The translations under genes were made by a program, and so were the position numbers. The notes under the pieces were generated by a model. It saw only the letters and a program-made list of their open reading frames with translations, was not told the DNA's origin and ran no database searches. A stretch of DNA of 60,560 nt, taken from the IMG/VR virus record IMGVR_UViG_3300005512_000032, positions 1-60,560 of that record; one strand, given 5' to 3'. This DNA is from a virus (Duplodnaviria; Caudoviricetes). Numbering within the stretch: the stretch's first letter is position 1; every line of letters begins with the position of its first letter. This document shows, piece by piece, positions 1,569 through 60,411 of the stretch.

Positions 1569-4315
1569 GACTTAATGCGCTACATCCTAAAGATGATCCA
1601 ATGGAGGACCTGTTGTTCTGCTTTGGCGGAGATGATGATGGCGGAGATAGCGGTGGCGACGATATGGACGCAGAACTTGACGCGATCTCAGAGCAGTTTG
1701 ACGCCATGGATGAGGCTTATGATCGTGGAGACAGTTTTCAGACTCATGGCCATTCTGGGTACACCTCTCGGGACGATGATGGCAATGTCACAGATCACAG
1801 TGGTGGCTTGGACTCATCACGGCAATTCGTCAGCAACGTGACGATCAGTGACGAAGAAATTCAGAATATATATATTGATGAACTTGGCAGACTGCCTGAT
1901 CCAGAAGGTGCAGACTACTGGAAAAACGACAGTGGCTTAACGGTCGATCAAATCAGGGAGGCTATTAACAACTCTCCAGAGGGAACAGAGTTTGATGCGA
2001 ACTCTAGTGATCCGGGAAACAGGGACACCATTGCAATAAACGCCGGAGTTTCCAGAGATACTATTGTTGGGTCTGGTCCGGGTGGCAATCGAGCGGTTTT
2101 GAGTTCGGATGGAACCCCTGTCACGTCCGAGAGGGCCATAGCGGAGGCCGCAAGGGAGGAGGGCGTTTCTGAGGCAGAGATACAAGATCGCATCAATAAA
2201 GTCACCATTGACCTTCAATCAGAGCGTTCATTCGAAGAAGATGAGGTATTTGATGACGCAGATGACCCAACTATTCCAATTGAATTCACTGATCAGGCAA
2301 TCATTGACGCAGATGACCCAACTATTTCAGTAACCACTCCAACAACGACTGGCACAACAGGTCGCACGACTTATGAGGTGGACCCAAGTATTAACGATTT
2401 GGTCCCCGAGGGTGTTGACCCTACTGTCATTGGACAAAGAGTTGACGATGGTGAGCTTGAGTATTTTGATGAAAATGTAAGAGACCCCGATAGAGTACCA
2501 ATCTCTGAACAGGACTATGCGAATTTACAGCGCGGCCGAGATATTATTGAAGGGGCAGAGATTGAAGATCTTGGCATGCCTCCTGAGACAATCGATGACC
2601 GTTCTTCGGAGTTTACATTTAGTCAAGCGCTTGATTATGCCTTAGACCAAGGTCTTGACTTAGACGATGCTCTTGATCGAGCAGAGGTAATGACAGGTGG
2701 TAGCCCTTATTCTTTTGATCGAGACTCTACTCCAGCTAAAGTGACAGATACGGTGGGGCTCGGAGTGGATGTTTCTTCACTTCCCGGAGCAGATCAAGTT
2801 CAATATAACGCTCAAGGCGAGATAGTTTCAGCTCCAGACGAGTTTCGTAGTGCGTTTGCAGAACTTACTCGGCGTGATCCAGTGACGGGAGAGACTGTCA
2901 TCACGATTGGCGGATCACTCCAGCGAGATGATGCGCTCTCTCAAGAGATCGAGTCTCTTCTTCAGGGAGGTTATACACTTGGATTTGAAGATGATGAGCT
3001 TGTATCACCGGAAGGTGTAACTGTTAATATTGCAGACCTTATGGGCGTCTCATTCACCTCAGAACGCTTCCTTGAATCTCTTGAAGGTGGATCTGAAGGC
3101 GGTGGTGGTCGCGAAGGTGAGGCCGGCGGTGGCGGAGCAAGAGGCGGCGCCAGCTTTGACCCCGGCGGCAAGGAAGGCACTGCCGCTACTGGCCAAGACC
3201 GGATTGACATAGATCTTCCTAAAGTGGAGGTGGATTTAGACCCAGCTCAAATTAATCCTGACACTGGTGCTGTGATTGATACAGATGCTGGTGATGTTGG
3301 TGAAGCCGAAACAGATGCGACCGGGGAAGGCCGCACAGAAGGCGAGTCGGAAGAGGATACGGGTGAAGACAGACCCGGCGGCGCAATTGGCGGTGACGAA
3401 ACTGGTGGTGTAAGTATTTTGCCCGGAGAGGAGGGACCAATCCTTCCCGGCGGCGAGGGGTCTGGCGTCCTTGGTGAGGGCGGTGACGACATTGTCGGAA
3501 TGGGCGATAAAGGCACTGGTGACGGAGTCGGTGGTGGTGATGGCACTGGAGAAGGTGCCGGCACAGGAACAGGCGCAGGTACGGGTACAGGAACTGGCAC
3601 AGGCACAGGTACTGGAGATGGAACCGGTACAGGTGGCGAAGGTGGCGGTACTGGTGACGGCACTGGTGACGGCACTGGTGATGATGATGATGATGATGAT
3701 GACTTCGAAGTTGACCCAATTGAAGAAATTGACGGGTATGATTTTGGCGACCCAATAACGGTTGACACAGACCTTGGTGACTTTGAATACAGACAGCCAC
3801 AGATAACCAGTCCATTTAATTTCGCTAGAGATTTCGGTTCCTACACGTTGTCGCCCGAAATAGAGCAATCATTTCAAGACCTTACAAAGGAGCGACAAGC
3901 GGCAGGGATGAGGACATCTCCTGTTGAGCTGTTTCCGGGGCAGGACATCAATCAAGAGATACTCAATCAAATATACATAGATGAGCTTGGTCGAGAGGTT
4001 GGCGATGTTGGTCTTGAGTATTGGCTACAAGAATCGGGGCTCACGGACCCTGAAGACATTCGGTCAGCGATTCGTTTGTCTGACGAGTTTGGTGAATACA
4101 CTGACCCGTTCGCATTATATGAGCCCGAATACCTCGAGCCAATTGGTACAATGTCAGAAGAGAGACAGGCCGAGCAAGGTATTGCTAATCTGATTGGCTC
4201 AAGGTTCCCGAGGTTCACTCCTGCCGGAGAGCGGTATCCATTTACTTCAACGCCTGAAGAGTCTGCACAGGCTCTTGTCAATGAGCTATTTGGTAGAAGT
4301 GATGGCAATCAGTAG
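1565..4315 (+). CDS. Large acidic Gly/Asp/Thr-rich protein with two DUF4214-like motifs and GTG repeats
   Basis: 916 aa; IYIDELGR.P/V...G..YW occurs twice; (GT)n and poly-Asp tracts; N-terminal LFCFGGDDDGG; ATGA-coupled to the HlyC-like gene. Confidence 0.75.
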   Translation: MRLNALHPKDDPMEDLLFCFGGDDDGGDSGGDDMDAELDAISEQFDAMDEAYDRGDSFQTHGHSGYTSRDDDGNVTDHSGGLDSSRQFVSNVTISDEEIQNIYIDELGRLPDPEGADYWKNDSGLTVDQIREAINNSPEGTEFDANSSDPGNRDTIAINAGVSRDTIVGSGPGGNRAVLSSDGTPVTSERAIAEAAREEGVSEAEIQDRINKVTIDLQSERSFEEDEVFDDADDPTIPIEFTDQAIIDADDPTISVTTPTTTGTTGRTTYEVDPSINDLVPEGVDPTVIGQRVDDGELEYFDENVRDPDRVPISEQDYANLQRGRDIIEGAEIEDLGMPPETIDDRSSEFTFSQALDYALDQGLDLDDALDRAEVMTGGSPYSFDRDSTPAKVTDTVGLGVDVSSLPGADQVQYNAQGEIVSAPDEFRSAFAELTRRDPVTGETVITIGGSLQRDDALSQEIESLLQGGYTLGFEDDELVSPEGVTVNIADLMGVSFTSERFLESLEGGSEGGGGREGEAGGGGARGGASFDPGGKEGTAATGQDRIDIDLPKVEVDLDPAQINPDTGAVIDTDAGDVGEAETDATGEGRTEGESEEDTGEDRPGGAIGGDETGGVSILPGEEGPILPGGEGSGVLGEGGDDIVGMGDKGTGDGVGGGDGTGEGAGTGTGAGTGTGTGTGTGTGDGTGTGGEGGGTGDGTGDGTGDDDDDDDDFEVDPIEEIDGYDFGDPITVDTDLGDFEYRQPQITSPFNFARDFGSYTLSPEIEQSFQDLTKERQAAGMRTSPVELFPGQDINQEILNQIYIDELGREVGDVGLEYWLQESGLTDPEDIRSAIRLSDEFGEYTDPFALYEPEYLEPIGTMSEERQAEQGIANLIGSRFPRFTPAGERYPFTSTPEESAQALVNELFGRSDGNQ

Positions 4316-4924: not shown

Positions 4925-5607
4925 TGGCTGTCGTAACACCAGACCTACCAGAGATCTTTGAGGAAGCCTTTGAGCGTGCAGGATTGGAGATGCGCTCTGG
5001 TTACGACTTGAAGACCGCCCGAAGAAGTCTGAACCTTCTCACACTGGAATGGCAAAACAGGGGACTCAACCTCTGGACTATTGAGCCCGGTACAATCGCG
5101 CTATCATCTGGCACGGAAACGTACACGTTACCCGCAGACACCATAGACTTGATTGAGATGTCTTTGCGGACTGGAACGGGTACTAACCAAACAGACACGA
5201 ACGTGGAGCGGATCAGTGTATCGACGTATTCTCAGCAGACTAACAAGAACACGACCGGTAGACCCGTACAAGCGTTCATTCGACGTTTGGCAACGGAAAC
5301 AACTGTTACGCTTTGGCCTGTGCCGGATGCACGTGACACTTATACTTTGGCGTATTACCGCCTGCGTGGCATTGAAAGCATTTCAACGGGAGTGTCAGGA
5401 ACGGCAGACGTTCCTCCTCGGTTTGTTCCTTGCCTTGTGGCTGGGCTTGCTTATTACATCGCCATGAAGCGTCCTGAGGTGAATGACAGGGTTGGTGCGT
5501 TGAAGCAGGAATACGAGTTCCAGTTTGAGTTGGCGGCAGGCGAAGACCGAGATACGTCATCCATTCGTTTCATCCCGTTCGACACATTCTACTTGGCGGG
5601 TCAGTGA
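4924..5607 (+). CDS. Head-tail adaptor/connector-like protein
   Basis: ARRSLNLL..EW.NRGLNLWT and LWPVPD motifs typical of podophage adaptor proteins; late-gene position. Confidence 0.6.
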   Translation: MAVVTPDLPEIFEEAFERAGLEMRSGYDLKTARRSLNLLTLEWQNRGLNLWTIEPGTIALSSGTETYTLPADTIDLIEMSLRTGTGTNQTDTNVERISVSTYSQQTNKNTTGRPVQAFIRRLATETTVTLWPVPDARDTYTLAYYRLRGIESISTGVSGTADVPPRFVPCLVAGLAYYIAMKRPEVNDRVGALKQEYEFQFELAAGEDRDTSSIRFIPFDTFYLAGQ

Positions 5608-5927
5608 TGCAAGACGCTATCTATAACCCGTTTTACTACAAGCCATTGCCAGATGAGATAACCATTGGTGGCAGTGAAATCGAGGGGCTTGGTATTTTTG
5701 CCACGACCGAAATAGATCCAGAGACTGACCTTGGCACAACACATATCAAGGTGCCTATGTTCCATGGGTACATACGCACACCAATCGGCGGGTTTCTAAA
5801 CCACGCCGAAGAAGCCAACTGTGAGCTTGTGTTAATCCATGACTGGGACGATTGTAAGGTTTACAATGTGTTCACCCTTCGTGCCATTGAACAGGGCGAA
5901 GAGTTGGTTCTGAACTACGAGGATTAA
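5604..5927 (+). CDS. SET-domain protein (lysine methyltransferase fold)
   Basis: GLGIFA, GFLNH...NC and I..GEELVLNY are the canonical SET motifs. Confidence 0.85.
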   Translation: MMQDAIYNPFYYKPLPDEITIGGSEIEGLGIFATTEIDPETDLGTTHIKVPMFHGYIRTPIGGFLNHAEEANCELVLIHDWDDCKVYNVFTLRAIEQGEELVLNYED

Positions 5928-44603: not shown

Positions 44604-44632
44604 AAAAAAAAAGCCCCGCCCGAAGGCGAGGC
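44604..44632 (-). terminator. Rho-independent terminator ending the putative early operon
   Basis: - strand GCCTCGCC-TTCG-GGCGGGGC followed by T9. Confidence 0.85.
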
Positions 44633-46041: not shown

Positions 46042-46632
46042 CTAGTAGTTGTACTGCTCTGCACGGCGATCACGCACTTCTCGCTCGAACGCGATGTAGT
46101 GCTTGAACGTTGTTGGCTGAACATAACCCGGACCCTCGAGCCCATCGTAGAATGATTGAATCCATTCGGCCGCCTGAACCCAGTGGGTAAAGCGGTGAAT
46201 GTCATCACTCTCGCACTGGTCACAGTCACGTGACCATGAGTAGAAATAGATGCCGTCCTTAAACTCTTGATCAAGGCGCTGGAACATCCAGTCGAAAAGC
46301 TCGGTCAGTGACTGACGCTTTAAAGGCTTGATGTCATAGTACGAATACTTTGGAGCGCCGACATCAGTGCTGTCATCGATCTCATGCATCCACTTGTGAG
46401 ACGCCAGTGCGCGTGGGTAAAACCAACCCCTGCGAACTCGCCCGCGAACCAGACGCATGGTCTCTTCAGTCTCCTCTTTTGAATCAGCGTGAACAGTGCG
46501 GTAAGTTCTTAGATACTCCCGCGTGAAATCATTCCACAGATCGTCATAGGCGGTATGCATTTCAGCGAATGACTTGTCTTCGTTTGCCTCGTTCGAAAGA
46601 AGCGCGAAACAGATTTGATTGTAAAAGTTCAT
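46042..46632 (-). CDS. Hypothetical early protein
   Basis: GGGAGA RBS directly downstream of a hammerhead. Confidence 0.6.
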   Translation of the reverse strand: MNFYNQICFALLSNEANEDKSFAEMHTAYDDLWNDFTREYLRTYRTVHADSKEETEETMRLVRGRVRRGWFYPRALASHKWMHEIDDSTDVGAPKYSYYDIKPLKRQSLTELFDWMFQRLDQEFKDGIYFYSWSRDCDQCESDDIHRFTHWVQAAEWIQSFYDGLEGPGYVQPTTFKHYIAFEREVRDRRAEQYNY

Positions 46633-46654
46633 AGGTATTCTCCCAATTGATTGA

Positions 46655-46715
46655 GGCCTGTCTCATCAGATCGTGGGCGGCCATCCCACAATGACCCGCC
46701 GGAGCGGGTTTCGAC
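46655..46715 (-). ncRNA. Hammerhead ribozyme, type II (HH-E)
   Basis: - strand GUC GAAA CCCGC-UCCG-GCGGG UC^ AUUGUGGG-AUGGCCG-CCCACGAU CUGAUGA GAC AGGCC; predicted cut between 46693 and 46692. Confidence 0.93.
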
Positions 46716-47039
46716 TTACGCCATGACAACGTCATTGAACCAGTCTTCGATCCACTTGTCGCTGTTCGCTGGGTTCGCGTCAGGACGGGTGTAGTTCATC
46801 GAGTGATCCATGACTGTCTCGTCATCATTGACGAACAGATTGATGTGCGCCGAACCACGGTACACTCTGTCGTCCCCGTAGAATCTCAGCACAGGCAAAT
46901 CATCCAGTGCTTCGATCATGTCCTTGACTTCCTTGTAGCTCGAAGAGTTCTCAACCTCGAGCCCCTCCATGGAGACCACGTCAATCGTGAAACCGTGATC
47001 GTTCAGTGCGTGCTTGATCAGTGATAGATATGCTTTCAT
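46716..47039 (-). CDS. Hypothetical early protein
   Basis: Its stop codon abuts HH-E. Confidence 0.6.
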   Translation of the reverse strand: MKAYLSLIKHALNDHGFTIDVVSMEGLEVENSSSYKEVKDMIEALDDLPVLRFYGDDRVYRGSAHINLFVNDDETVMDHSMNYTRPDANPANSDKWIEDWFNDVVMA

Positions 47040-47275
47040 GACTTCCCCCGAATCAGGTGTGGTTCAACCAGAAACAAATTCTCTGGCGTGCAAGTTGATA
47101 CTGCGTAGTTGGCGCCATGGAACCGTACGCCTGACTCTCCGATCCAGCCCACGTCCTTGCACACGATGCGCTTGGGCGTGACTTTGGAGATCTCGTAGAC
47201 GCGGTCCTCGAGGCCGTTGATGTTCCAGACCAGTTGGCCTGCGCGTAGATTGTGCTGAATGTTGTTTGTGTTCAT
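47036..47275 (-). CDS. Hypothetical early protein
   Basis: RBS present; coupled to the next gene. Confidence 0.55.
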   Translation of the reverse strand: MNTNNIQHNLRAGQLVWNINGLEDRVYEISKVTPKRIVCKDVGWIGESGVRFHGANYAVSTCTPENLFLVEPHLIRGKS

Positions 47276-47305
47276 AGTGTTTCCCTGTTGCTTACTGAGT
47301 AAACG

Positions 47306-47345
47306 AATGAGGCGCCCGAAATATTTCAGACGCCTTCATTTTTTT
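47306..47345. terminator. Intergenic hairpin (terminator-like on +, or a processing stem)
   Basis: AATGAGGCGCCCGAA-ATAT-TTCAGACGCCTTCATT followed by a T run on the + strand. Confidence 0.45.
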
Positions 47346-47754
47346 AAGATCCCATGTGGACCAGTAAGAATTGAGTCTTGCCCATAGACACCGGCTCAAT
47401 CTGTTCAATGAACCGTCCCCAGTAACCACACTTGTCCATCAGGTCTGCCACACAATAGGCCATCTCCAATGGATCCATGTACTTGCCGTAGACGCCCGCC
47501 AAATGCTCTGAGAACCAGAGCGGCGAGTCATCACGCATAACAGCGTGCTCTACACCTTGACTCAGGTCAGGCGACTTGAAAGCGACAGCGTATTGACCAT
47601 CAGGCAAATCAATCTGAGGACATTCATCGTCCAGTGAAAACATGATTCGCAGTGGCTGTTGGCAGTCGTTCTGTGTGCTCGACTTGAACTCATAGACGGT
47701 GCTCAGGTTATAGCCGTTCCGGAGGTCCATCGCGGCTTCATGTAAATCAACCAT
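47344..47754 (-). CDS. Hypothetical early protein
   Basis: True start is probably the ATG at 47754 after GGGAGA; the longer call runs into the ribozyme. Confidence 0.55.
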   Translation of the reverse strand: MVDLHEAAMDLRNGYNLSTVYEFKSSTQNDCQQPLRIMFSLDDECPQIDLPDGQYAVAFKSPDLSQGVEHAVMRDDSPLWFSEHLAGVYGKYMDPLEMAYCVADLMDKCGYWGRFIEQIEPVSMGKTQFLLVHMGS

Positions 47755-47772
47755 AGTTATTCTCCCGTGTTT

Positions 47773-47836
47773 TGACATGGCTCTTCAGGCCGTGGTCTGT
47801 CACACCACAACGACAGGGCCGGAGCCCTGTTTCGCC
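47773..47836 (-). ncRNA. Hammerhead ribozyme, type II (HH-D)
   Basis: - strand GGC GAAA CAGGGC-UCCG-GCCCUG UC^ GUUGUGGU-GUGACAG-ACCACGGC CUGAAGA GCC AUGUCA; loop UGACA pairs with tail UGUCA; cut between 47812 and 47811. Confidence 0.92.
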
Positions 47837-48034
47837 TCACGAACAATGACGCAGTTCGATTGCGTCCTCCGGCAGGTATACAGAATAAAAATCCTGCACG
47901 TTTTCAACCAGCTCGTCATGGAGCAGGCAGAAACTAAATGGCTTGAAATACATGATCTCGCCATCGTCAAACTTGCAGTACATGACGCGAGTGTAATTGT
48001 CGGGCATCGAGCCCATCGTGACTTTAGGTATCAT
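47837..48034 (-). CDS. Hypothetical early protein
   Basis: RBS present; stop codon abuts HH-D. Confidence 0.55.
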   Translation of the reverse strand: MIPKVTMGSMPDNYTRVMYCKFDDGEIMYFKPFSFCLLHDELVENVQDFYSVYLPEDAIELRHCS

Positions 48035-48052
48035 GGTTCCCCCTTGGGCCGC

Positions 48053-48934
48053 TTACGCGGCCTCCACTAGTGATGACATGTCGGCGGTGTCCAGAGCGAA
48101 CCGCGCCGCCTTCTCTGCGTGCGAGCATGCTGTGATCAATGCCCGCTTGTCTTTCTTCAATACGTTCAGCCAGTTGTTCAGGTATTTGGCGTGATCGTCC
48201 CGTGGCTCATTGGTGACACCAGTCACACCACAGAGAATCGCCGCACCCATCTCAGCAACCAGCTCCTCGAAGGCATACGCCTCATCGCCGAAGCGCTTGC
48301 CAAACTCACGATTGAGTCGTGACTCGTGACCGGTCCAGTGGACCAGCTCGTGGAGTGCGGTGCCGTAGTAGCCGGCAGGATCCGCGAACTGTTCAGGCTT
48401 GGGCAGGGTGATGGCGTCCACACTTGGAGCGTAGAATGCACGATCGCTGGCCACGTTGCGGATGACCGCGCCCGAACCAGATAAAACGGCTTCAGCGGTC
48501 ACGTGCTCCTCCCAGTCATTGTCATCCGGGATAGTGTCCGGCTCAATACGTAAACCATCAGCTCCCTGCACTTGGTCAATGTTGAAGACCACGAACGACT
48601 TCAGGATAGGGAACGAAACAGTCTCACCTGTCTCGTCTTCTTTGGTCACCTTAGAGAACCAGACCACGTGTGTGCCCTTGGATCCCTTGGTCACTTGAGC
48701 GCCCATCGACTTCCACTGCTTGAACGTGGCGAAGACTGGTTGGCCCCAGCCGTTGTCCATCATGGCAAGCTGAAGCATCCAGCGATTGACTCCAGAGTAT
48801 GGACGCCCAACCGCAGAGCGAGGAGCGCCGTGCTCCACTGTCGCCGCAACCCATGGCTGGGTCCAGTTGGCGCCGTGTGTCTCCATCATTTCGATCACGC
48901 GATCTGTGATCTGCTCAATAACATTTGATTTCAT
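48053..48934 (-). CDS. ardC: ArdC-like antirestriction protein (ssDNA-binding domain plus zincin)
   Basis: W..PW, YSG.N...L, TFKQW...G.QV.KG.KG, VFN.DQ, HELVHWTGH..RL.R and YA.EELVAE motifs. Confidence 0.9.
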   Translation of the reverse strand: MKSNVIEQITDRVIEMMETHGANWTQPWVAATVEHGAPRSAVGRPYSGVNRWMLQLAMMDNGWGQPVFATFKQWKSMGAQVTKGSKGTHVVWFSKVTKEDETGETVSFPILKSFVVFNIDQVQGADGLRIEPDTIPDDNDWEEHVTAEAVLSGSGAVIRNVASDRAFYAPSVDAITLPKPEQFADPAGYYGTALHELVHWTGHESRLNREFGKRFGDEAYAFEELVAEMGAAILCGVTGVTNEPRDDHAKYLNNWLNVLKKDKRALITACSHAEKAARFALDTADMSSLVEAA

Positions 48935-48953
48935 GGTGTTCTCCCAGTTGTTT

Positions 48954-49013
48954 GCCCTGTCTCATCAGTGTGGGTAGGGCTCATCCCACAGACCGGCCGG
49001 AGCCGGTTTCGAC
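48954..49013 (-). ncRNA. Hammerhead ribozyme, type II (HH-C)
   Basis: - strand GUC GAAA CCGGC-UCCG-GCCGG UC^ UGUGGG-AUGAGCCCUA-CCCACA CUGAUGA GAC AGGGC; loop GCCCU pairs with tail AGGGC; cut between 48991 and 48990. Confidence 0.95.
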
Positions 49014-49216
49014 TATGCTGGATACAACTCCTGCTTTGGCATTTCGATCTCTTCGATAACGAACTCGCAAAGTAAATTGTGAGCGGTCATCGAACCCTGC
49101 CAATTCATCGCGCATTGTTTGTTGTACGTGGACACCATCAGCACCTTTGGTGCTTGGTTCCACTTAGTGCTTCCGCGCTCTTGAGCATAGACGTTGTATA
49201 GCTTTGAAGTATCCAT
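49013..49216 (-). CDS. Hypothetical early protein (67 aa) flanked by two ribozymes
   Basis: Start MDTSKLYNV after GGGGA RBS. Confidence 0.55.
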   Translation of the reverse strand: MDTSKLYNVYAQERGSTKWNQAPKVLMVSTYNKQCAMNWQGSMTAHNLLCEFVIEEIEMPKQELYPA

Positions 49217-49237
49217 GTGTATTCCCCTTATGTGTTT

Positions 49238-49297
49238 GGCCTGTCTCATCAGTGGCAGGAGGCCGGATCTGCCAGACGCCCCGTAGGGCGTTTCGAC
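49238..49297 (-). ncRNA. Hammerhead ribozyme, type II (HH-B)
   Basis: - strand GUC GAAA CGCCC-UACG-GGGCG UC^ UGGCAG-AUCCGGCCUC-CUGCCA CUGAUGA GAC AGGCC; loop GGCCU pairs with tail AGGCC; cut between 49275 and 49274. Confidence 0.95.
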
Positions 49298-49740
49298 TAT
49301 GCCTTGGTCCAGTACGAATTGACTGGGCGGTATGTGCAGTCCCAGAGGTCTCGACACTCGCCATTCACAATCGCGGTGAGGTGACCTGAGTTGGTGACCA
49401 CAGCGCGGCTGGGTGCAGTGTGCCAGTCGCGCAACTTAATCAGTTTGCCAAGACCATCACGTGGACACTTGTTTTTGATCCAGCCCTGATCCTTCAGGTA
49501 CCGCTCAAAAACGCATGGCCAATTGGGATAGGCGCCGTATTCCATGCCCAAGTACATCAGCTCGCGGAAGACCTGTTCGTATGGCAGGTCCAGCGCGATC
49601 ACGATGGAGCGAACCACACAGTCCTCTGTGCGCTTGCCCCGAAATTTGTACCCAACCTTGGATCGTCCGCCATCGTCCCAAACCCAATTGATCTCAGATT
49701 GAAGACCAAGGTCTTTGCAAACGTCTTTGTATAAGTTCAT
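49297..49740 (-). CDS. First early gene; hypothetical, possibly a papain/C39-like fold
   Basis: DCVVRSI...GHLTAI.NG...D.WD gives a candidate Cys/His/Asp triad; GAGGA RBS. Confidence 0.55.
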   Translation of the reverse strand: MNLYKDVCKDLGLQSEINWVWDDGGRSKVGYKFRGKRTEDCVVRSIVIALDLPYEQVFRELMYLGMEYGAYPNWPCVFERYLKDQGWIKNKCPRDGLGKLIKLRDWHTAPSRAVVTNSGHLTAIVNGECRDLWDCTYRPVNSYWTKA

Positions 49741-49748
49741 AGGTAGTT

Positions 49749-49808
49749 CCTCGTGTTTCGTTGGCGTTCTCATCAGAGCAGGCTCGCCACTGCCTGCTAA
49801 CACGAAGG
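49749..49808 (-). ncRNA. Hammerhead ribozyme, type III with minimal stem II (HH-A)
   Basis: - strand CCUUCGUG UU^ AGCAGGC-AGUGGCGA-GCCUGCU CUGAUGA G-AACGCCAA-C GAAA CACGAGG; loops UGGCG and CGCCA are complementary; cut between 49799 and 49798. Confidence 0.85.
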
Positions 49809-52119: not shown

Positions 52120-53640
52120 GTGGAGAAAGCAAGCATCGACCTGTCGAGTTACGCGAACCAGATTAAGAGCATGTCGCCCGATGAACAGCGTGAGCTTCTC
52201 AAGCTGTTCGATGAACTCCAGACAGTCAAAAACAAAGAATTAGCCCAGACGGACTTCATTGAGTTTGTCAAACAGGTCTGGCCTGCGTTTATTGCGGGCC
52301 GGCACCACCAAATCATGGCCGATGCGTTCGAACGTGTGGCAAAAGGTGAGCTCAAGCGCCTGATTATCAATATGCCACCCCGACACACCAAGTCAGAATT
52401 CGCTTCATACTTGTTCCCCGCTTGGTTTCTTGGGCAATATCCCGAAAAAAAGGTGATTCAGACCGCACACACCGCAGAATTGGCGGTAAATTTCGGTCGT
52501 AAAGTCCGCAACTTGGTCGATAACCCCGATTACAAGAACGTGTTCAGCGATTTATCCCTGTCAGCAGACTCAAAGGCCGCCGGTCGGTGGGCAACCTCCG
52601 CAGGCGGAGACTATTTTGCGATTGGTGTGGGCGGTGCAGTGACCGGTAAGGGAGCTGATGTGTTAATTATCGATGACCCCCACTCCGAACAAGACGCCGC
52701 CATGGGCGCGTACAACCCTGAAGTGTATGACAAGGTCTACGAGTGGTACACATCTGGACCACGACAGCGTTTACAGCCCGGTGGGTCAATTATTATCGTG
52801 ATGACACGCTGGTCCGTTCGAGATCTCACTGGGCAAATCATCAAGAAATCCGCCGAGCGCGAAGGTTCCGACGAATGGGAAGTCATTGAATTCCCGGCAA
52901 TCATGCCATCCGGTGAGCCGCTGTGGCCTGAGTTCTGGCCGCTCCCCCAACTCGAAGCACTGAAGGCTGAATTGCCTGTTTCGAAGTGGCAAGCCCAGTA
53001 CCAGCAAGATCCAACGTCCGAAGAAGGCGCACTGATTAAGCGTGAGTGGTGGCGCACGTGGGACAGCCTAGATCCACCGCCCTGCGAGGCAATCATTCAG
53101 TCTTGGGACACCGCGTTCTTAAAAACACAGCGCTCGGACTACTCAGCTTGCACCACGTGGGGTGTCTTTTATCATCCCAATGATGACGGTAAGGATGTTC
53201 CAAATCTGATATTATTGGATTCATTCAAGGGCAAATACGAATTCCCTGAGCTGAAGAAAATTGCACATCAGCATTATTGGGAGTGGGAGCCTGACCAAAT
53301 GATCGTGGAAGCCAAGGCATCTGGTGCGCCACTGGTTTTTGAGTTAAGGTCGATGGGGATTCCGGTCACGGAGTTTACGCCATCCCGAGGTCAGGATAAA
53401 ATTGCCCGAGTGAATGCGATTACAGATTTGTTTGCGTCCGGTGTGGTATGGGCACCACCCACCCGCTGGTCAGATGAATTGATTGAAGAGTGTGCCGCGT
53501 TCCCAAGTGGGGACCATGATGACTTAGTGGACTCAATGTCTCAGGCCCTGCTTCGATTCCGTCAAGGTGGATGGATCCGAAGCAGTATGGATGACTGGGA
53601 TGATGAGCCAACTCACAAGCAAAAGGTTGAATATTACTGA
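52120..53640 (+). CDS. terL: Terminase large subunit
   Basis: INMPPRHTKSE Walker A, LIIDDP Walker B, SWDTA and HDDLVDS nuclease motifs. Confidence 0.95.
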   Translation: MEKASIDLSSYANQIKSMSPDEQRELLKLFDELQTVKNKELAQTDFIEFVKQVWPAFIAGRHHQIMADAFERVAKGELKRLIINMPPRHTKSEFASYLFPAWFLGQYPEKKVIQTAHTAELAVNFGRKVRNLVDNPDYKNVFSDLSLSADSKAAGRWATSAGGDYFAIGVGGAVTGKGADVLIIDDPHSEQDAAMGAYNPEVYDKVYEWYTSGPRQRLQPGGSIIIVMTRWSVRDLTGQIIKKSAEREGSDEWEVIEFPAIMPSGEPLWPEFWPLPQLEALKAELPVSKWQAQYQQDPTSEEGALIKREWWRTWDSLDPPPCEAIIQSWDTAFLKTQRSDYSACTTWGVFYHPNDDGKDVPNLILLDSFKGKYEFPELKKIAHQHYWEWEPDQMIVEAKASGAPLVFELRSMGIPVTEFTPSRGQDKIARVNAITDLFASGVVWAPPTRWSDELIEECAAFPSGDHDDLVDSMSQALLRFRQGGWIRSSMDDWDDEPTHKQKVEYY

Positions 53641-56099
53641 TGGCAATTGAAAAGCCCATGGAAGCCACGGATATTGTTGAGATTGAAACGCTCACGGATC
53701 CCGAAATTGAACTTGAGGTGATTAACCCAGACGCGGTCACCGTTGAGGAAGAAGACGGATCGATGACTATCGTGCTCGATCCCGAGATGCAAGAAGACAT
53801 GATGGGCCCGAACCATGATGCGAACTTCGCAGAATTCCTCGAAGAAGGCGAACTCCAAGAGATTGGATCAGAGCTGGTTGAGCAGTTCTATGGTGACAAA
53901 GAGTCACGCAAAGATTGGTCTCGTGCGTATATCAAGGGCCTTGATCTTCTTGGGTTAAAGGTTGAAGACAGAAACCAACCATGGCCCGGCGCCTGTGGCG
54001 TGTTTCACCCCGTCCTGACTGAAGCTGTTGTGCGTTTCCAAGCACAGGCAATCACAGAATTATTTCCTGCCGGCGGACCCGTTCGTACCAAAGTTGTTGG
54101 TAACGTGGACGAAATGAAGGTCAAGCAGGCGTCTCGCGTTGAGCACGAGATGAATTACCAGCTCACCGAGAAGATGACCGAGTACCGAGACGAGTTCGAG
54201 CAGATGCTGTTCAAACTTCCTTTGGCCGGATCTGCGTTCAAGAAGGTGTATTATGATCCCATACTGGAGCGGGCGGTTGCCATGTTCGTTCCAGCAGAAG
54301 ATTTTGTCGTTTCATATGGTGCGGCGGACTTGGTCACGGCCGAGCGCTACACCCATGTGATGAAGAAGAGCCCGAACGAAATCCATAAGATGATGGTCAA
54401 CGGGTTCTACAGTGACGTAGATCTCCCAGATCCTGCGCCAGAATACTCCGACATTGAGGAGAAGTATGATGAGCTTGAAGGTGAAACTCCTTATGGAGTT
54501 GAGGACGATGATCGACACACCATTCTCGAGATGCATGTTGATTACGATCTTCCAGAACCGTTTGGAGATGCTGATGGGATTGCCCGTCCTTATGTTATTA
54601 CGATAGACAAGTCATCCCGAACTGTTCTTTCAATCCGCCGGAATTGGTATGAAGATGATCCCAAGAAACAGAAGCGACAGCATTTTGTACATTATCGTTA
54701 TCTACCCGGCCTTGGTTTCTACGGCACTGGCCTTATCCATCTTATTGGTGGTTTGGCTAAATCTGCGACCTCTATCTTGCGCCAGCTTGTGGATGCAGGC
54801 ACACTATCCAACTTGCCAGCAGGCCTCAAGGCCCGTGGGCTCCGAATCAAAGGAGACGATTCGCCACTGATGCCGGGCGAGTTCCGGGATGTAGACATTC
54901 CCGGAGGCGCGATCAAGGACAACATTTTCCCGCTTCCTTACAAGGAGCCGTCCGGTGTTCTTTATCAGTTGCTTGGAAATATGGTTGAAGAGGGTCGCCG
55001 CATTGGTTCGGTGGCGGATGTCGATATTTCTTCGGCCAATCAAAACGCACCAGTCGGGACAACACTTGCGCTGTTAGAGCGCTCACTAAAGGTGATGTCT
55101 GGGGTCCAAGCCCGAATTCATAATTCGTTTAAGAAAGAACTTCGTATCCTGTCTGAGATCATCCATGATCACATGTCAGCGCAATACGAGTACGACCTCG
55201 AAGGTGAGTTCTCACGGGTTGATGATTTCGACAAGCGCGTGGATGTTATTCCCGTTTCTGATCCGAATGCGGCAACAACGTCCCAGCGGATCATTGCGTA
55301 TCAGGCCGCATTGCAATTGGCACAGCAGGCACCGCAGTTGTACAACTTAGGCATGCTTCACAGGCAAATGCTTGAAACGCTGTCGATTCCAAACGCAGAA
55401 GAGATCGTCAAGTTGCCTGAAGACATTCAGCCACATGACCCTGTGACTGAGAATATGATGATGCTGAAGCAAGAACCAGTCAAAGCATTTGCATATCAAG
55501 ACCATGAGGCGCACATTGCCACGCACATGGCCATGATGAAGGATCCAAAGGTTCGTGAGCTGGTTGGCCAGTCACCGTTTGCCAAGGCAATCGAGGGGGC
55601 AATGATCGAGCATGTCACAGAGCACGTTGCGTTCCAGTACAGAAAAGAGGTTGAGAAGCAATTGGGTGTTCCTCTTCCCGCAGAGGAAGCTCTTCTCCCT
55701 GAAGATGTGGAGCGTGAGCTTGCTCCACTTATCTCTGAAGCCACTCAAAAAGTGCTACAGGCGAATCAAGCGGAGATGGCTCAGAAGAAAGCACAGCAAC
55801 AACAACAAGATCCACTCACTCAGATTCAGCAACGAGAGCTGGCTCTCAAAGAGGCGGAGTTCAAGCACAAGCGAGATATGGATGTGGCCAAGCTACAGAC
55901 AGACCTCATCAACAAAGAAGAGACCCGAGGTCTCGAGCGTGACCGTTTGGCCTCACAAGAGCGTCAAGAAGGTGCCCGGTTGGGTGTCAAGATTGCGACC
56001 GAAAAAGACAAACTCGACAGAGAAGAACAGATCGAAGGCGTCAAGCTAGGCGTCCAGATCGCAGAGTCTATTGCAGACAAAGGAGACGTAAATGAATGA
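53640..56099 (+). CDS. Portal protein
   Basis: 819 aa directly after terL; GSAFKKVYYD and PG.GFYG.GL motifs; coiled-coil Gln-rich tail. Confidence 0.85.
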   Translation: MAIEKPMEATDIVEIETLTDPEIELEVINPDAVTVEEEDGSMTIVLDPEMQEDMMGPNHDANFAEFLEEGELQEIGSELVEQFYGDKESRKDWSRAYIKGLDLLGLKVEDRNQPWPGACGVFHPVLTEAVVRFQAQAITELFPAGGPVRTKVVGNVDEMKVKQASRVEHEMNYQLTEKMTEYRDEFEQMLFKLPLAGSAFKKVYYDPILERAVAMFVPAEDFVVSYGAADLVTAERYTHVMKKSPNEIHKMMVNGFYSDVDLPDPAPEYSDIEEKYDELEGETPYGVEDDDRHTILEMHVDYDLPEPFGDADGIARPYVITIDKSSRTVLSIRRNWYEDDPKKQKRQHFVHYRYLPGLGFYGTGLIHLIGGLAKSATSILRQLVDAGTLSNLPAGLKARGLRIKGDDSPLMPGEFRDVDIPGGAIKDNIFPLPYKEPSGVLYQLLGNMVEEGRRIGSVADVDISSANQNAPVGTTLALLERSLKVMSGVQARIHNSFKKELRILSEIIHDHMSAQYEYDLEGEFSRVDDFDKRVDVIPVSDPNAATTSQRIIAYQAALQLAQQAPQLYNLGMLHRQMLETLSIPNAEEIVKLPEDIQPHDPVTENMMMLKQEPVKAFAYQDHEAHIATHMAMMKDPKVRELVGQSPFAKAIEGAMIEHVTEHVAFQYRKEVEKQLGVPLPAEEALLPEDVERELAPLISEATQKVLQANQAEMAQKKAQQQQQDPLTQIQQRELALKEAEFKHKRDMDVAKLQTDLINKEETRGLERDRLASQERQEGARLGVKIATEKDKLDREEQIEGVKLGVQIAESIADKGDVNE

Positions 56100-58115: not shown

Positions 58116-58775
58116 ATGTCTTCAGTAAGCACCCCTTATGGCCTTGTAGCCAAGCAAAAGCTTGGTTTCGGCTATTACAATGGTGCGTTTCGTGAGTACC
58201 CTGTCAAGGCGAACAACTCTGCCGCTATTTTTAATGGCGATTTGGTTGTTCTTTCAACAGCAGGACTCCCGAGCGCAGTAGGCTCATCACCTGTCGCATT
58301 CGACGTAAGTGGAGCATCAGACGCAACTGCCGGAATTATGGGCGTATGCGTTGGCGCACGTTACATCGATGCAAATGGTGTTACACAATTCAGCAACTTC
58401 TTGCCAGCAGGTTTGGTTACAGGTGGCGCGACCGAAGTATTCGTTCGTGTAGCTGACGATCCAGACTTGATCTTCCAAGTAAAAGGCACGGCGGCCCTCG
58501 GTACATTCAACAGCGGAACAGATGGTTCTGGTTTTGCTGGTGCAGTTGGCATGAACGCGGCCCTCGACTTCAACACATCTGGTTCAACATCGACTAATAA
58601 GTCTGGTGTTGCATTGGCGGTTGGAGCCAACGGCGGAAGCTTGGCGGCTACTTCAACTCTTGCAGTACGCATCGTTGAAGTTGTTCCCGGCACAGAAGCG
58701 GATGACTACCCAGAGTTTCTTGTGAAGCTCAACGTGGGCGTTCATTCATACCATAACCCACTTGGCTTAGCGTAA
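58116..58775 (+). CDS. Capsid decoration/stabilising protein
   Basis: PYGL, IF.GD.V and DDPD..F motifs; directly upstream of the major capsid gene. Confidence 0.6.
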   Translation: MSSVSTPYGLVAKQKLGFGYYNGAFREYPVKANNSAAIFNGDLVVLSTAGLPSAVGSSPVAFDVSGASDATAGIMGVCVGARYIDANGVTQFSNFLPAGLVTGGATEVFVRVADDPDLIFQVKGTAALGTFNSGTDGSGFAGAVGMNAALDFNTSGSTSTNKSGVALAVGANGGSLAATSTLAVRIVEVVPGTEADDYPEFLVKLNVGVHSYHNPLGLA

Positions 58776-58786
58776 GGAGCTAGATC

Positions 58787-59695
58787 ATGGCGATTTCACG
58801 TTCCCAGCTCCTTAAAGAGCTGTTACCGGGTCTCAATGCATTGTTCGGTTTGGAGTACGACAAGTACGAAAACGAGCATGCAGAGATTTACGAAACTGAA
58901 AACTCAGAGCGTTCATTCGAGGAAGAGGTCAAGCTGTCAGGCTTTGGCGCGGCTCCTGTGAAGAACGAAGGCGCGGCTATCCAGTACGATACTGCACAAG
59001 AAGCCTTCACTGCTCGCTACAACCACGAAACGGTAGCAATGGGTTTCTCTGTCACTGAAGAAGCGATGGAAGATAACCTGTATGACGCATTGTCTGCTCG
59101 TTACACCAAGGCACTTGCACGTGCAATGGCGTACACCAAGCAAACAAAAGCGGCGGCATTGCTGAACAACGGTTTCACAACATTCAACTCTGGCGATGGT
59201 ACGACTCTGTTCAGCACCACACACGCCACTGTTGGTGGAACGAACAACCGTAACCGTTTGGCCACAGATGCGGATCTCAACGAGACATCTCTTGAGCAAG
59301 CAGTCATTGATATCGCGGCTTTTACAGACGAGCGTGGTCTTTTGATCGCGGCACGTCCACGTAAGCTGATTGTTCCACCTGCATTGATGTTCGTTGCAAC
59401 TCGTTTGCTCGAGACAGATCTGCGTGTTGGTACAGCGGACAACGATATCAACGCGATCCGCTCAAACGGCTCTATCCCAGAGGGATATCGTGTCAACCAT
59501 TACTTGACAGACAGTGATGCATTCTTCATCACAACAGATGTACCAAATGGAATGAAGCACTTCGTGCGGACTCCAATGCAGACATCTATGGACGGTGACT
59601 TCGACACAGGTAACGTGCGCTACAAGGCGCGTGAGCGTTACTCATTCGGTGTTTCTGACCCACTTGGAATCTTCGGTTCACCCGGAGCATCCTAA
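58787..59695 (+). CDS. Major capsid protein
   Basis: MAISR.QLLKELLPGLNALFG.EY and DFDTGN.RYKARERYSFG..D motifs; strong RBS; terminator follows. Confidence 0.88.
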   Translation: MAISRSQLLKELLPGLNALFGLEYDKYENEHAEIYETENSERSFEEEVKLSGFGAAPVKNEGAAIQYDTAQEAFTARYNHETVAMGFSVTEEAMEDNLYDALSARYTKALARAMAYTKQTKAAALLNNGFTTFNSGDGTTLFSTTHATVGGTNNRNRLATDADLNETSLEQAVIDIAAFTDERGLLIAARPRKLIVPPALMFVATRLLETDLRVGTADNDINAIRSNGSIPEGYRVNHYLTDSDAFFITTDVPNGMKHFVRTPMQTSMDGDFDTGNVRYKARERYSFGVSDPLGIFGSPGAS

Positions 59696-59725: not shown

Positions 59726-59769
59726 TCCTGACAGCATTATGCTGACACTTGCCACGACAGGAGATTGAC

Positions 59770-60411
59770 ATGGCTAACACAACTTTCACAGGACCAGTTC
59801 GGTCCGAAGGCGGATTCGAGGTTGTTGACAAAAATGCGGCAACCGGAACTTTCACCACTTCCCTAGATATTGCATCTGATGGTGCGATTGATTTAACTTA
59901 TTCAAGCTCCGACACAGGTACTGGGAACGTCGAACCGATTGTCATGGAAAACACCATGACAGGCGCTGGCGGATTGGCAGGTCGTGCTCGCTTTCAATTG
60001 AATGCTGATGCCGCTTTGGGTTCTTACTCAAACGCAATGAAAGCAATCACTGTATATGGAGCCTCAGGCAAGACAACCGGCTTGGGCTCAGCTTTTGTTG
60101 CAGAGATGACCTTATCTGCTGGCACTGATGCAGGCACTTATGCCCCACTTGAGATTGAACTGAATGCTCCAACAGGTGCCGACACAGGTACGTTGACATC
60201 ATTCATCCACATTTCAACACAGGGTGATGATGTCGCAACAATTGATGACAACGTGCGTTTGTTCAACCTTGCGGGTGTAACTGCGGGTACAGGGCATGTG
60301 TTCCAAACAGGTAACACCGCCCCAGCAACAGTTGGTGGCACATTGAAGTGCCGTGTTGCAGGAACAGACTACTACGTTATCCTGTATACAAGCGAAGCGA
60401 CCACCACCTAA
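59770..60411 (+). CDS. Putative head fibre/structural protein
   Basis: MANTTFTGPVRSE.GF N-terminus; AGGAG RBS. Confidence 0.6.
   Translation: MANTTFTGPVRSEGGFEVVDKNAATGTFTTSLDIASDGAIDLTYSSSDTGTGNVEPIVMENTMTGAGGLAGRARFQLNADAALGSYSNAMKAITVYGASGKTTGLGSAFVAEMTLSAGTDAGTYAPLEIELNAPTGADTGTLTSFIHISTQGDDVATIDDNVRLFNLAGVTAGTGHVFQTGNTAPATVGGTLKCRVAGTDYYVILYTSEATTT

Follow-up and report, generated by a model that had tools for sequence, protein, structure and literature searches.

The window, 60,560 nucleotides of viral DNA, is the complete 60.5-kb genome of a tailed phage with direct terminal repeats. It carries terminase (52120-53640), portal (53640-56099), and major head (58787-59695) genes, all on the plus strand. 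Between the plus-strand packaging and structural genes lies a minus-strand block that extends from approximately position 35.3 kb to 52 kb, in which the ORF list shows a leftward, early-type stretch (46042..49803, minus strand) that four predicted ribozymes, HH-B, HH-C, HH-D, and HH-E, would divide. The order along the minus strand is a 168-aa ORF, HH-B, a 67-aa ORF, HH-C, an ArdC-type anti-restriction gene with a 65-aa ORF, HH-D, the 139-, 79-, and 107-aa ORFs, HH-E, and a 196-aa ORF.

The ArdC gene (48053..48934, minus strand; 293 aa) matches Pfam ArdcN (1.2e-29) and MPTase-PolyVal (1.5e-47) as well as PHROG 7245, anti-restriction protein (1.4e-81). It shares the segment bounded by HH-C and HH-D with the 65-aa ORF (47837-48034, minus strand). 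Among the 10 ORFs tested against Pfam and PHROG, we found no other family match except a PHROG without an assigned function for the 168-aa ORF. GenBank held no near-identical phage. Matches were limited to the ArdC gene, at 71-77% across stretches of 130-230 bases in 22 phage records (Caulobacter and Brevundimonas), and they do not allow the host to be named.

Four type II hammerheads occupy intergenic gaps

We scanned the window with Rfam covariance models, permissively across 40000-60560 and at gathering level over the remainder. We found four matches to RF02276 (Hammerhead_II), all on the minus strand within 2.65 kb, while none of 14 control genomes had a match. The original prediction had placed four type II ribozymes at 46655-49297, and all four lie there; this span opens exactly on the final pseudoknot base of HH-E and closes on the first base of HH-B stem II. 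Three copies reach the curated gathering score of 37 bits (HH-E, 43.9 bits, the best of the four; HH-B, 40.4 bits; and HH-D, 37.2 bits). HH-C scored 35.2 bits, just under this cutoff, with E values of 0.00068 in the 20-kb scan and 4.7e-7 per genome. Nothing is missing from its core, three stems, or pseudoknot.

In standard nomenclature numbering, the hammerhead consensus is C3-U4-G5-A6-N7-G8-A9, G12-A13-A14, A15.1-U16.1, and an NUH triplet. This catalytic core is intact in all four copies, as CUGA(U/A)GA, GAAA, A15.1-U16.1, and GUC before the cleavage site. The first element reads CUGAUGA in HH-B, HH-C, and HH-E and CUGAAGA in HH-D, position N7 being free. Each copy also has the type II topology, in which loops cap stems I and III and the 5' and 3' ends lie in stem II. 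Stem III is 6-7 bp with a tetraloop, stem I is 6 or 8 bp with a 10- or 7-nt loop, and stem II is a 3-bp open helix.

The four elements, all given on the minus strand, are as follows. HH-B (49235..49298) has stem II GUC 49297-49295/GAC 49245-49243, a stem III hairpin at 49291-49276 with a UACG loop, a stem I hairpin at 49274-49253 (6 bp, 10-nt loop), the core at 49252-49246, and predicted cleavage after C17 at 49275/49274. HH-C (48951..49014) has stem II GUC 49013-49011/GAC 48961-48959, stem III at 49007-48992 with a UCCG loop, stem I at 48990-48969 (6 bp, 10-nt loop), the core at 48968-48962, and predicted cleavage at 48991/48990. HH-D (47770..47837) has stem II GGC 47836-47834/GCC 47781-47779, stem III at 47830-47813 with a UCCG loop, stem I at 47811-47789 (8 bp, 7-nt loop), the core at 47788-47782, and predicted cleavage at 47812/47811. 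HH-E (46652..46716) has stem II GUC 46715-46713/GAC 46662-46660, stem III at 46709-46694 with a UCCG loop, stem I at 46692-46670 (8 bp, 7-nt loop), the core at 46669-46663, and predicted cleavage at 46693/46692. Stem II thus covaries as had been claimed, being GUC/GAC in HH-E, HH-C, and HH-B and GGC/GCC in HH-D.

All four ribozymes are on the coding strand of the operon, and each fits into an intergenic gap, with a stop codon before it and the next ribosome-binding site after it. At HH-B, the upstream 168-aa ORF ends in a UAG (49299-49297) that shares the first G of stem II, and the next ATG is at 49216. At HH-C, the preceding small ORF likewise ends in a UAG overlapping stem II, and the ArdC ATG (48934) follows 24 nt past stem II. 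The UGA stop of the 65-aa ORF (47839-47837) abuts stem II of HH-D, where the likely next start is ATG 47763, behind GGGAGA. The UAA stop of the 107-aa ORF (46718-46716) abuts stem II of HH-E, and the next ATG is at 46632. Each copy therefore adjoins or overlaps the upstream stop, and 15-27 nt separate its end from the next start.

A scan of the window for the core motif returned 11 matches, compared with 6.29 expected. Besides the four ribozymes, only one (58119-58169, minus strand) was hairpin-like. We rejected this candidate fifth hammerhead ("HH-A"), which lies antisense within the beginning of the plus-strand ORF at 58116-58775, has no closing A15.1-U16.1 pair, and had no Rfam match up to an E value of 1.

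Loop I pairs with the 3' tail in every copy

The original prediction also held that loop I and the tail after stem II are complementary in each copy, with differing sequences. Reading the pairs from the sequence, we found Watson-Crick pseudoknots in 4 of 4 copies (all minus strand): GGCC 46682-46679 with GGCC 46658-46655 in HH-E (4 bp), UGACA 47802-47798 with UGUCA 47777-47773 in HH-D (5 bp), GCCCU 48980-48976 with AGGGC 48958-48954 in HH-C (5 bp), and GGCCU 49264-49260 with AGGCC 49242-49238 in HH-B (5 bp). Three different sequences are used, and the tail side begins 0-1 nt past stem II.

To put these helices in context, shuffled loops reached the observed length in 592 (HH-B), 271 (HH-C), 278 (HH-D), and 2,988 (HH-E) of 20,000 shuffles each. 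Because of these counts, the HH-E pseudoknot is weak taken alone (15% of shuffles, versus 1.4-3% for the other three). In a four-by-four matrix of loops against tails, the cognate combinations gave 5, 5, 5, and 4 bp, and the noncognate ones gave 2-4 bp except for HH-B with HH-E, which reached 5 bp because both use GGCC. We had considered that neighboring copies might differ so as to avoid cross-pairing. We rejected this idea because HH-B and HH-E are cross-compatible; further evidence against it is that neighbors at other loci, for example L097, L110, and L206, have identical loops and tails.

Only for HH-D does the nested minimum-energy fold reproduce the complete three-stem hammerhead and give a clear z-score (-2.76, with 1 of 200 shuffles as good). 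The nested folds of the other three were not clearly better than shuffles (z-scores of -0.88, -1.12, and -1.18). That of HH-B favors the loop/tail pairing over stem I, and alternative folds therefore compete.

The pseudoknot is maintained by compensatory change across the family

We compared the four copies with 123 type II hammerheads from other phage contigs, giving a set of 127 unique elements that was selected for stem II GUC/GAC. A helix of at least 4 bp between cognate loop and tail was present in 106 of the 123 elements outside the window and in 110 of 127 overall, and the members with a pseudoknot have 62 distinct tail-side helix sequences. In contrast, noncognate loop/tail combinations reached 4 bp or more in 3,150 of 16,002 cases (19.7%), and shuffled loops did so in 19.6%. 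When tails were permuted, none of 2,000 permutations reached the observed mean of 4.63, the maximum being 3.11. The geometry is also consistent: in 83 of the 110 members, the distance from the cleavage site to the loop base that partners the stem II-proximal tail base is 14-15 nt, and in the window's four copies it is 14, 14, 15, and 15 nt.

Because a MAFFT alignment of the four full copies is not structure-aware, columns were counted on a gap-free subclass alignment of 35 members, with elements parsed by script. In this alignment, pseudoknot pairs 11-37 and 12-36 alternate among GC, CG, and AU, and 10 and 19 sequences carry changes in both partners. The whole structure is 91.7% paired, a level that none of 500 shuffles attained (64.8%), and pairing falls to 32-41% when the partners are slid.

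As had been predicted, stem III is capped by a UNCG tetraloop in all four copies (UCCG in three, UACG in one). In the wider set, UNCG occurs in only 49 of 127 members and GNRA in 20 of 127. The UNCG cap is a common option and not a rule of the family.

The nearest relative carries a matched pseudoknot swap

The nearest relative in IMG/VR is a locus (L005) whose ArdC is 59% identical to that of the window. Like the window, it has a type II hammerhead directly upstream of ArdC (L005:3901-3962), as HH-C is, and another one small ORF downstream (L005:5103-5167), as HH-D is. The downstream copy has the loop and distal stem I of HH-D except for one compensated pseudoknot pair, in which a C-to-G change of one loop base is matched by a complementary G-to-C change in the tail. 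Its stems II and III are rewritten too, with pairing kept. L005 differs from the window in having an extra type II copy (5613-5676). It also differs in the slot upstream of the ORF that precedes the ArdC-proximal ribozyme, which holds a type III-like hammerhead (at 3626-3681; 39.9 bits, short of its 48.5-bit cutoff) in place of the window's type II HH-B.

We made four comparisons of flanking small ORFs from the window with those of L005, and none showed meaningful similarity (best E value, 0.021). These ORFs are therefore not homologous, a gene-specific role is unsupported, and we describe the ribozymes as positionally similar around ArdC rather than orthologous. Nor are the ribozymes tied to ArdC, as only 2 among the first 50 of 80 fetched ArdC-relative loci had a type II hammerhead.

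The original prediction had attributed the loop/tail pairing to selection on RNA structure rather than to a decaying DNA repeat. The 106 of 123 cognate helices against about 20% for mismatched ones, the compensatory column changes, and the matched swap in the relative bear this out, and disruptive and compensatory mutants of other family members tie the pseudoknot to fast cleavage (PMC3088659). The conclusion is supported but not new, as it restates the published type II tertiary contact.

Many phage type II hammerheads begin at a stop codon

Of the 127 members of the set, selected for GUC/GAC, 72 follow an upstream ORF of at least 40 codons whose stop codon begins 2 or 3 nt ahead of stem II, compared with 50 of 2,540 random positions in the same loci. 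For 51 of those 72, the first G of stem II belongs to a UAG stop. Stem II is directly preceded by an A in 109 of 127 members. All four copies in the window fit this register. The conserved A could also be structural, and genome compaction alone could suffice to produce such a register.

The term "stop codon" is absent from the main text of the 2011 report on type II hammerheads (Perreault et al., PLoS Comput Biol 7:e1002031, PMC3088659), whose supplements may bear on the point. A full-text literature search, covering articles without their supplements, returned no paper on stop-codon overlap of hammerheads.

Discussion

We conclude, with a probability of roughly 85%, that four functional type II hammerheads lie in intergenic gaps of a leftward, early-type operon in a complete 60.5-kb tailed phage genome. 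This builds on the motif identity, pairing, covariation, and placement that we observed directly. Others have reported on relatives that shortening or mutating the pseudoknot lowers the cleavage rate about 20- to >100-fold and that compensatory mutation restores it (PMC3088659). Triple hammerhead arrangements that flank genes, ardA included, were reported to cleave in vitro and in E. coli (PMC3088659), and three type II hammerheads of Desulfovibrio vulgaris were reported to cleave in vivo (PMC8782182). We infer that the four copies in the window cleave and thereby affect mRNA fate, and their most likely role is to cut an early polycistronic mRNA into gene-sized pieces.

According to this model, each copy would fold as a three-way junction with stem II open and stems I and III capped by loops, and the 4- to 5-bp pseudoknot would lock stems I and II side by side, providing the tertiary contact that the type II family needs for fast cleavage at physiological Mg2+. 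Cuts after C17 (49275/49274, 48991/48990, 47812/47811, and 46693/46692) would yield gene-sized mRNAs. The upstream product would keep its stop codon and carry a 2',3'-cyclic phosphate about 21-24 nt further on, at the end of the GC-rich stem III with its UNCG cap. The downstream product would begin with a 5'-OH on the stem I hairpin and retain the loop I/tail pseudoknot in full, with 15-27 nt between it and the next start codon. Such processing would probably uncouple the stability and translation of neighboring early genes, ArdC included.

The stop-codon register raises a more speculative proposal: that the 5' edge of the ribozyme is built by rule, rather than by accident, onto the upstream stop codon. 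A ribosome that terminates there would sit over stem II and the 5' half of stem III, so that folding and termination would be mutually exclusive. If this were true, the cut would be translation gated, and the loop I/tail pseudoknot would be a protective 5'-terminal cap that sets the half-life of the downstream mRNA. We regard the proposal as a whole as rather unlikely.

It is possible that the ribozymes are real and active but are selfish or neutral portable modules at gene-cassette boundaries, perhaps shared recombination sequences, that bring no benefit through mRNA cutting. Their similar placement around ArdC in the window and L005, next to small ORFs without detectable similarity, fits such modules, as do their presence in only 2 of 50 ArdC-relative records and the report that the genes flanked by clusters in phages and prophages are not constant in identity (PMC3088659). 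However, the copies share only core strings of about 8-10 nt, and their stems and pseudoknots are rewritten between copies, which makes them poor substrates for homologous recombination. The strong purifying selection on a fast-cleaving fold and the precise fit between stop codon and ribosome-binding site also argue that cleavage itself is selected, and we consider neutral modules improbable.

Hammerheads also catalyze the reverse ligation reaction, and pairs of ribozymes might excise and ligate the intervening segment into circular or spliced RNAs. This was raised for clustered phage ribozymes in the 2011 report, which describes such products as not detectable (PMC3088659). In the window, the segments are ordinary ORFs with their own ribosome-binding sites, and no sequence feature brings their ends together, so excision and ligation seem very improbable. 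That the complementarity reflects chance or composition in decaying copies of a GC-rich DNA repeat draws on the HH-E GGCC palindrome, matched by 15% of shuffled loops, and on its sharing with HH-B, which makes those two helices nonindependent, but it is already contradicted and scarcely credible given three different helices among four copies with intact cores, 110 of 127 cognate helices against 19.7% noncognate with compensatory changes, and sense-strand, intergenic placement in four of four.

Cutting of the early mRNA remains our preferred role. A 2017 review described the biological role of prokaryotic and phage hammerheads as an open question and noted that no type II crystal model was available at the time (PMC6155905). 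Our copies are new examples of a published type and leave knowledge of the ribozyme itself unchanged. They add four clean, naturally covarying type II pseudoknots within one complete phage genome. The locus and the 127-member set would also make a convenient test bed, with a tight register of stop codon, ribozyme, and ribosome-binding site and a constant pseudoknot geometry.

The closest published system is the type II class of Perreault et al. (RF02276), reported to have the same permuted topology, conserved core, and, in the majority of members, the same pseudoknot, in which loop I forms at least 4 bp with the nucleotides just 3' of stem II (PMC3088659). In the architecture that this report describes, we found no difference from the window's copies. 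Its clusters likewise place several copies around single genes or short blocks of phage or prophage operons, including an anti-restriction gene. That gene is named there as ardA, whereas it is ArdC type here, which adds one more anti-restriction gene bracketed by hammerheads. The window also differs in that its four copies, within 2.65 kb, belong to the complete genome of a free phage, not a prophage, and in that this genome has direct terminal repeats. The pseudoknotted hammerhead of PDB 8YDC (Zhan et al., 2024, Nat Commun 15:6628, PMC11300833) likewise has a Watson-Crick pseudoknot helix, which is reported to take the place of the loop-loop tertiary contact and to give a compact, very fast hammerhead. 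In contrast to our copies, its pseudoknot substitutes for helix II and uses an extra stem-loop (helix IV) with pistol-like connectivity (PMC11300833), whereas the copies in the window keep a 3-bp stem II and form the pseudoknot from loop I and the 3' tail.

The four ribozymes are type II hammerheads in an early-type gene block

The Rfam type II hammerhead model RF02276 (gathering cut-off, 37 bits) matched four elements on the minus strand: HH-E at 46652-46716 (43.9 bits), HH-D at 47770-47837 (37.2 bits), HH-C at 48951-49014 (35.2 bits, just below the cut-off), and HH-B at 49235-49298 (40.4 bits). None of 14 control genomes gave a match in the same search. We found that the core was intact in all four copies, with CUGAUGA (CUGAAGA in HH-D), GAAA, an A-U-closed stem III, and a GUC cleavage triplet. 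Every testable feature of a type II hammerhead is present, except that HH-C scores 1.8 bits too low for the cut-off. Matches to other hammerhead families were absent at gathering level from the whole window and, at E values up to 1, from 40000-60560. A core-like string at 58119-58169 (minus strand) was rejected as a fifth hammerhead; it falls within a plus-strand gene, in antisense orientation, and has no closing pair on stem III.

The 60,560-base window is bounded by direct terminal repeats, and its IMG/VR record is that of a complete virus. The packaging and structural genes are on the plus strand (terminase, 52120-53640; portal, 53640-56099; major head, 58787-59695). All four RF02276 matches fall within a minus-strand block at about 35.3 to 52 kb that holds recombination genes, other early-type genes, and many small ORFs. 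The Mu-gpT-DE RNA motif, known from Mu-like head gene regions, was also found (RF03012, 57.6 bits; cut-off, 49) at 59726-59772 on the plus strand, where its 3' end extends to an ATG a short way past the major-head-like gene.

Loop I and the 3' tail covary in all four copies

The original prediction was that loop I pairs with the tail after stem II in each copy through different sequences, that stem II covaries, and that a UNCG loop always caps stem III. Reading the four RNAs confirmed every item. The tail bases right after stem II pair with loop I over 4 bp in HH-E (GGCC/GGCC) and 5 bp in HH-D (UGACA/UGUCA), HH-C (GCCCU/AGGGC), and HH-B (GGCCU/AGGCC). Both sides of the middle stem II pair are changed, from GUC/GAC in HH-E, HH-C, and HH-B to GGC/GCC in HH-D, and the stem III caps are UCCG, UCCG, UCCG, and UACG. 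The boundaries given, 46655 and 49297, coincide exactly with the final base of the HH-E pseudoknot and the opening stem II base of HH-B.

When each loop was shuffled 20,000 times, the observed helix length was reached by 592 shuffles for HH-B, 271 for HH-C, 278 for HH-D, and 2,988 for HH-E; the first three pairings are each unlikely by chance, and that of HH-E is not. In a four-by-four matrix of loops and tails, cognate helices were 5, 5, 5, and 4 bp and noncognate ones 2 to 4 bp, except that HH-B and HH-E are interchangeable at 5 bp because both use GGCC. Nested energy folding recovered stems I and III in HH-E, HH-D, and HH-C and favored the loop/tail helix over stem I in HH-B. Only HH-D had a clearly low folding z-score (-2.76).

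The pseudoknot covaries widely in phage type II hammerheads

ArdC, an anti-restriction gene at 48053-48934 (minus strand), lies between HH-C and HH-D. Only 2 of 50 records carrying ArdC relatives (the first 50 of 80 loci fetched) held a type II hammerhead. ArdC homology is a poor route to ribozyme relatives, and we therefore scanned IMG/VR with the shared stem II and core strings fixed and loop I and the tail unconstrained, obtaining at least 120 stretches. Among the matches listed, scripted parsing of all loci and the window yielded 159 candidates; a stem- and tail-length filter kept 149 and dropped 10, and removal of 22 duplicates left 127 unique hammerheads, including the window's four.

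Among these matches listed, loop I and the first eight tail bases could form a Watson-Crick helix of at least 4 bp in 110 of 127, compared with 3,150 of 16,002 noncognate pairs (19.7%) and 4,986 of 25,400 shuffled loops (19.6%), and the tail side of the helix took 62 distinct sequences. Without the window's copies, 106 of 123 of the listed hammerheads reached 4 bp, and their mean helix length was 4.63, against a maximum mean of 3.11 in 2,000 tail permutations.

Covariation was also seen by column count. In a gap-free alignment of the most frequent architecture (stem I of 6 bp, loop of 10 nt; 35 of the matches listed, HH-B and HH-C among them), 91.7% of cells over the whole structure were paired; shuffles gave 64.8% (0 of 500 as high), and sliding the partners gave 32 to 41%. 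Stem I is 100% paired by construction; the set was selected independently of the pseudoknot. In these 35 sequences, pair 11-37 was GC in 23, CG in 6, and AU in 4, and pair 12-36 was GC in 15, CG in 11, and AU in 8. Pseudoknot geometry is constant. The distance from the cleavage site to the loop base partnered with the tail's stem II-proximal base is 14 to 15 nt in 83 of the 110 listed hammerheads and 14, 14, 15, and 15 nt in the window's four. Taken together, these data support the inference of selection on RNA structure.

In one IMG/VR contig (L111, 8402-11317, plus strand), five type II hammerheads are packed into about 3 kb, and no two share a loop I/tail helix; thus, clusters bigger than the window's four exist.

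The nearest relative retains the pairing around ArdC

The nearest relative is contig L005, whose ArdC is 59% identical; one type II hammerhead (3901-3962) directly precedes ArdC there, another (5103-5167) follows it after a single small ORF, and a third (5613-5676) comes behind the next ORF. The copy at 5103 has its loop and distal stem I in common with HH-D, but its loop reads UGAGA rather than UGACA, matched by a tail of UCUCA rather than UGUCA, and stems II and III have new sequences that still pair. Comparison of the flanking small ORFs detected no relatedness between the window and L005; thus, the ribozyme positions around ArdC are alike and the cassettes are different.

L005 also has a type III-like hammerhead at 3626-3681 on the plus strand (RF00008, 39.9 bits, below the 48.5-bit cut-off), upstream of the small ORF preceding the ArdC-proximal type II ribozyme. 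In the window, the type II HH-B occupies roughly the corresponding place, and hammerhead topologies may therefore be interchangeable at such gene boundaries.

The ribozymes sit in a stop-codon register

Each ribozyme lies in an intergenic gap, on the coding strand. The upstream stop codon is a UAG that gives stem II its first G in HH-B (49297-49299) and HH-C (49013-49015), and a UGA (HH-D, 47837-47839) or UAA (HH-E, 46716-46718) ending one base before stem II, all on the minus strand. In the window, 15 to 27 nt separate stem II from the next start codon, which is preceded by a GGGAGA- or GGGGA-type ribosome-binding site. The HH-D tail, AUGUCA, holds an in-frame AUG (47778, minus strand) from which the next ORF would gain 5 codons; translation more likely starts at the 47763 AUG (minus strand), behind GGGAGA.

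Among the matches listed (loci L089 to L208), 72 of the 127 unique phage hammerheads have an upstream stop codon that touches or overlaps stem II on its 5' strand, compared with 50 of 2,540 random positions. A UAG shares its G with stem II in 51 of those 72, an A precedes stem II in 109 of the 127, and the downstream start codon is mostly 18 to 29 nt past stem II in this listed set. The odds are low that the register reflects a translation-gated mechanism rather than genome compaction.

Cleavage after C17 would split the transcript into pieces carrying a 168-aa ORF, a 67-aa ORF, ArdC with a 65-aa ORF, three ORFs, and a 196-aa ORF. Each upstream piece would finish with the stable stem III hairpin, bearing a cyclic phosphate, and each downstream piece would open with a 5'-OH on stem I and retain the whole pseudoknot. 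Plausibly, such cleavage would uncouple the stability and translation of neighboring early genes.

About 2 kb downstream of HH-E, a strong terminator-like hairpin (44613-44632, minus strand; 8 pairs, 7 of them G-C, a UUCG loop, then nine T's) is likely the end of the ribozyme-carrying transcription unit. An 11-bp hairpin at 47310-47335, in a ribozyme-free 68-nt gap between minus-strand ORFs of 139 and 79 aa, has a T run behind it on the plus strand and so resembles a plus-strand terminator; in the minus-strand direction there is no T tail.

Comparison with known hammerheads

Type II hammerheads were described by Perreault et al. in 2011 (PMC3088659). That paper reports that, in most members, loop I forms a pseudoknot of at least 4 pairs with the nucleotides directly 3' of stem II; shortening or mutating it lowered activity about 20- to >100-fold, and compensatory mutation rescued it. 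It also describes prophage genes, including ardA, flanked by multiple hammerheads active in vitro and in E. coli. The observation confirmed here and the inference it supports both restate the published defining tertiary contact of type II hammerheads; the stop-codon register is the one point that may extend past the main text of that paper. For Desulfovibrio vulgaris, a 2021 study reports that three type II hammerheads cleave in vivo (PMC8782182). A 2017 review (PMC6155905) calls the biological role an open question and notes the lack of a type II crystal structure at that time. The structure of a pseudoknotted hammerhead of a different form has been solved (PDB 8YDC; PMC11300833).
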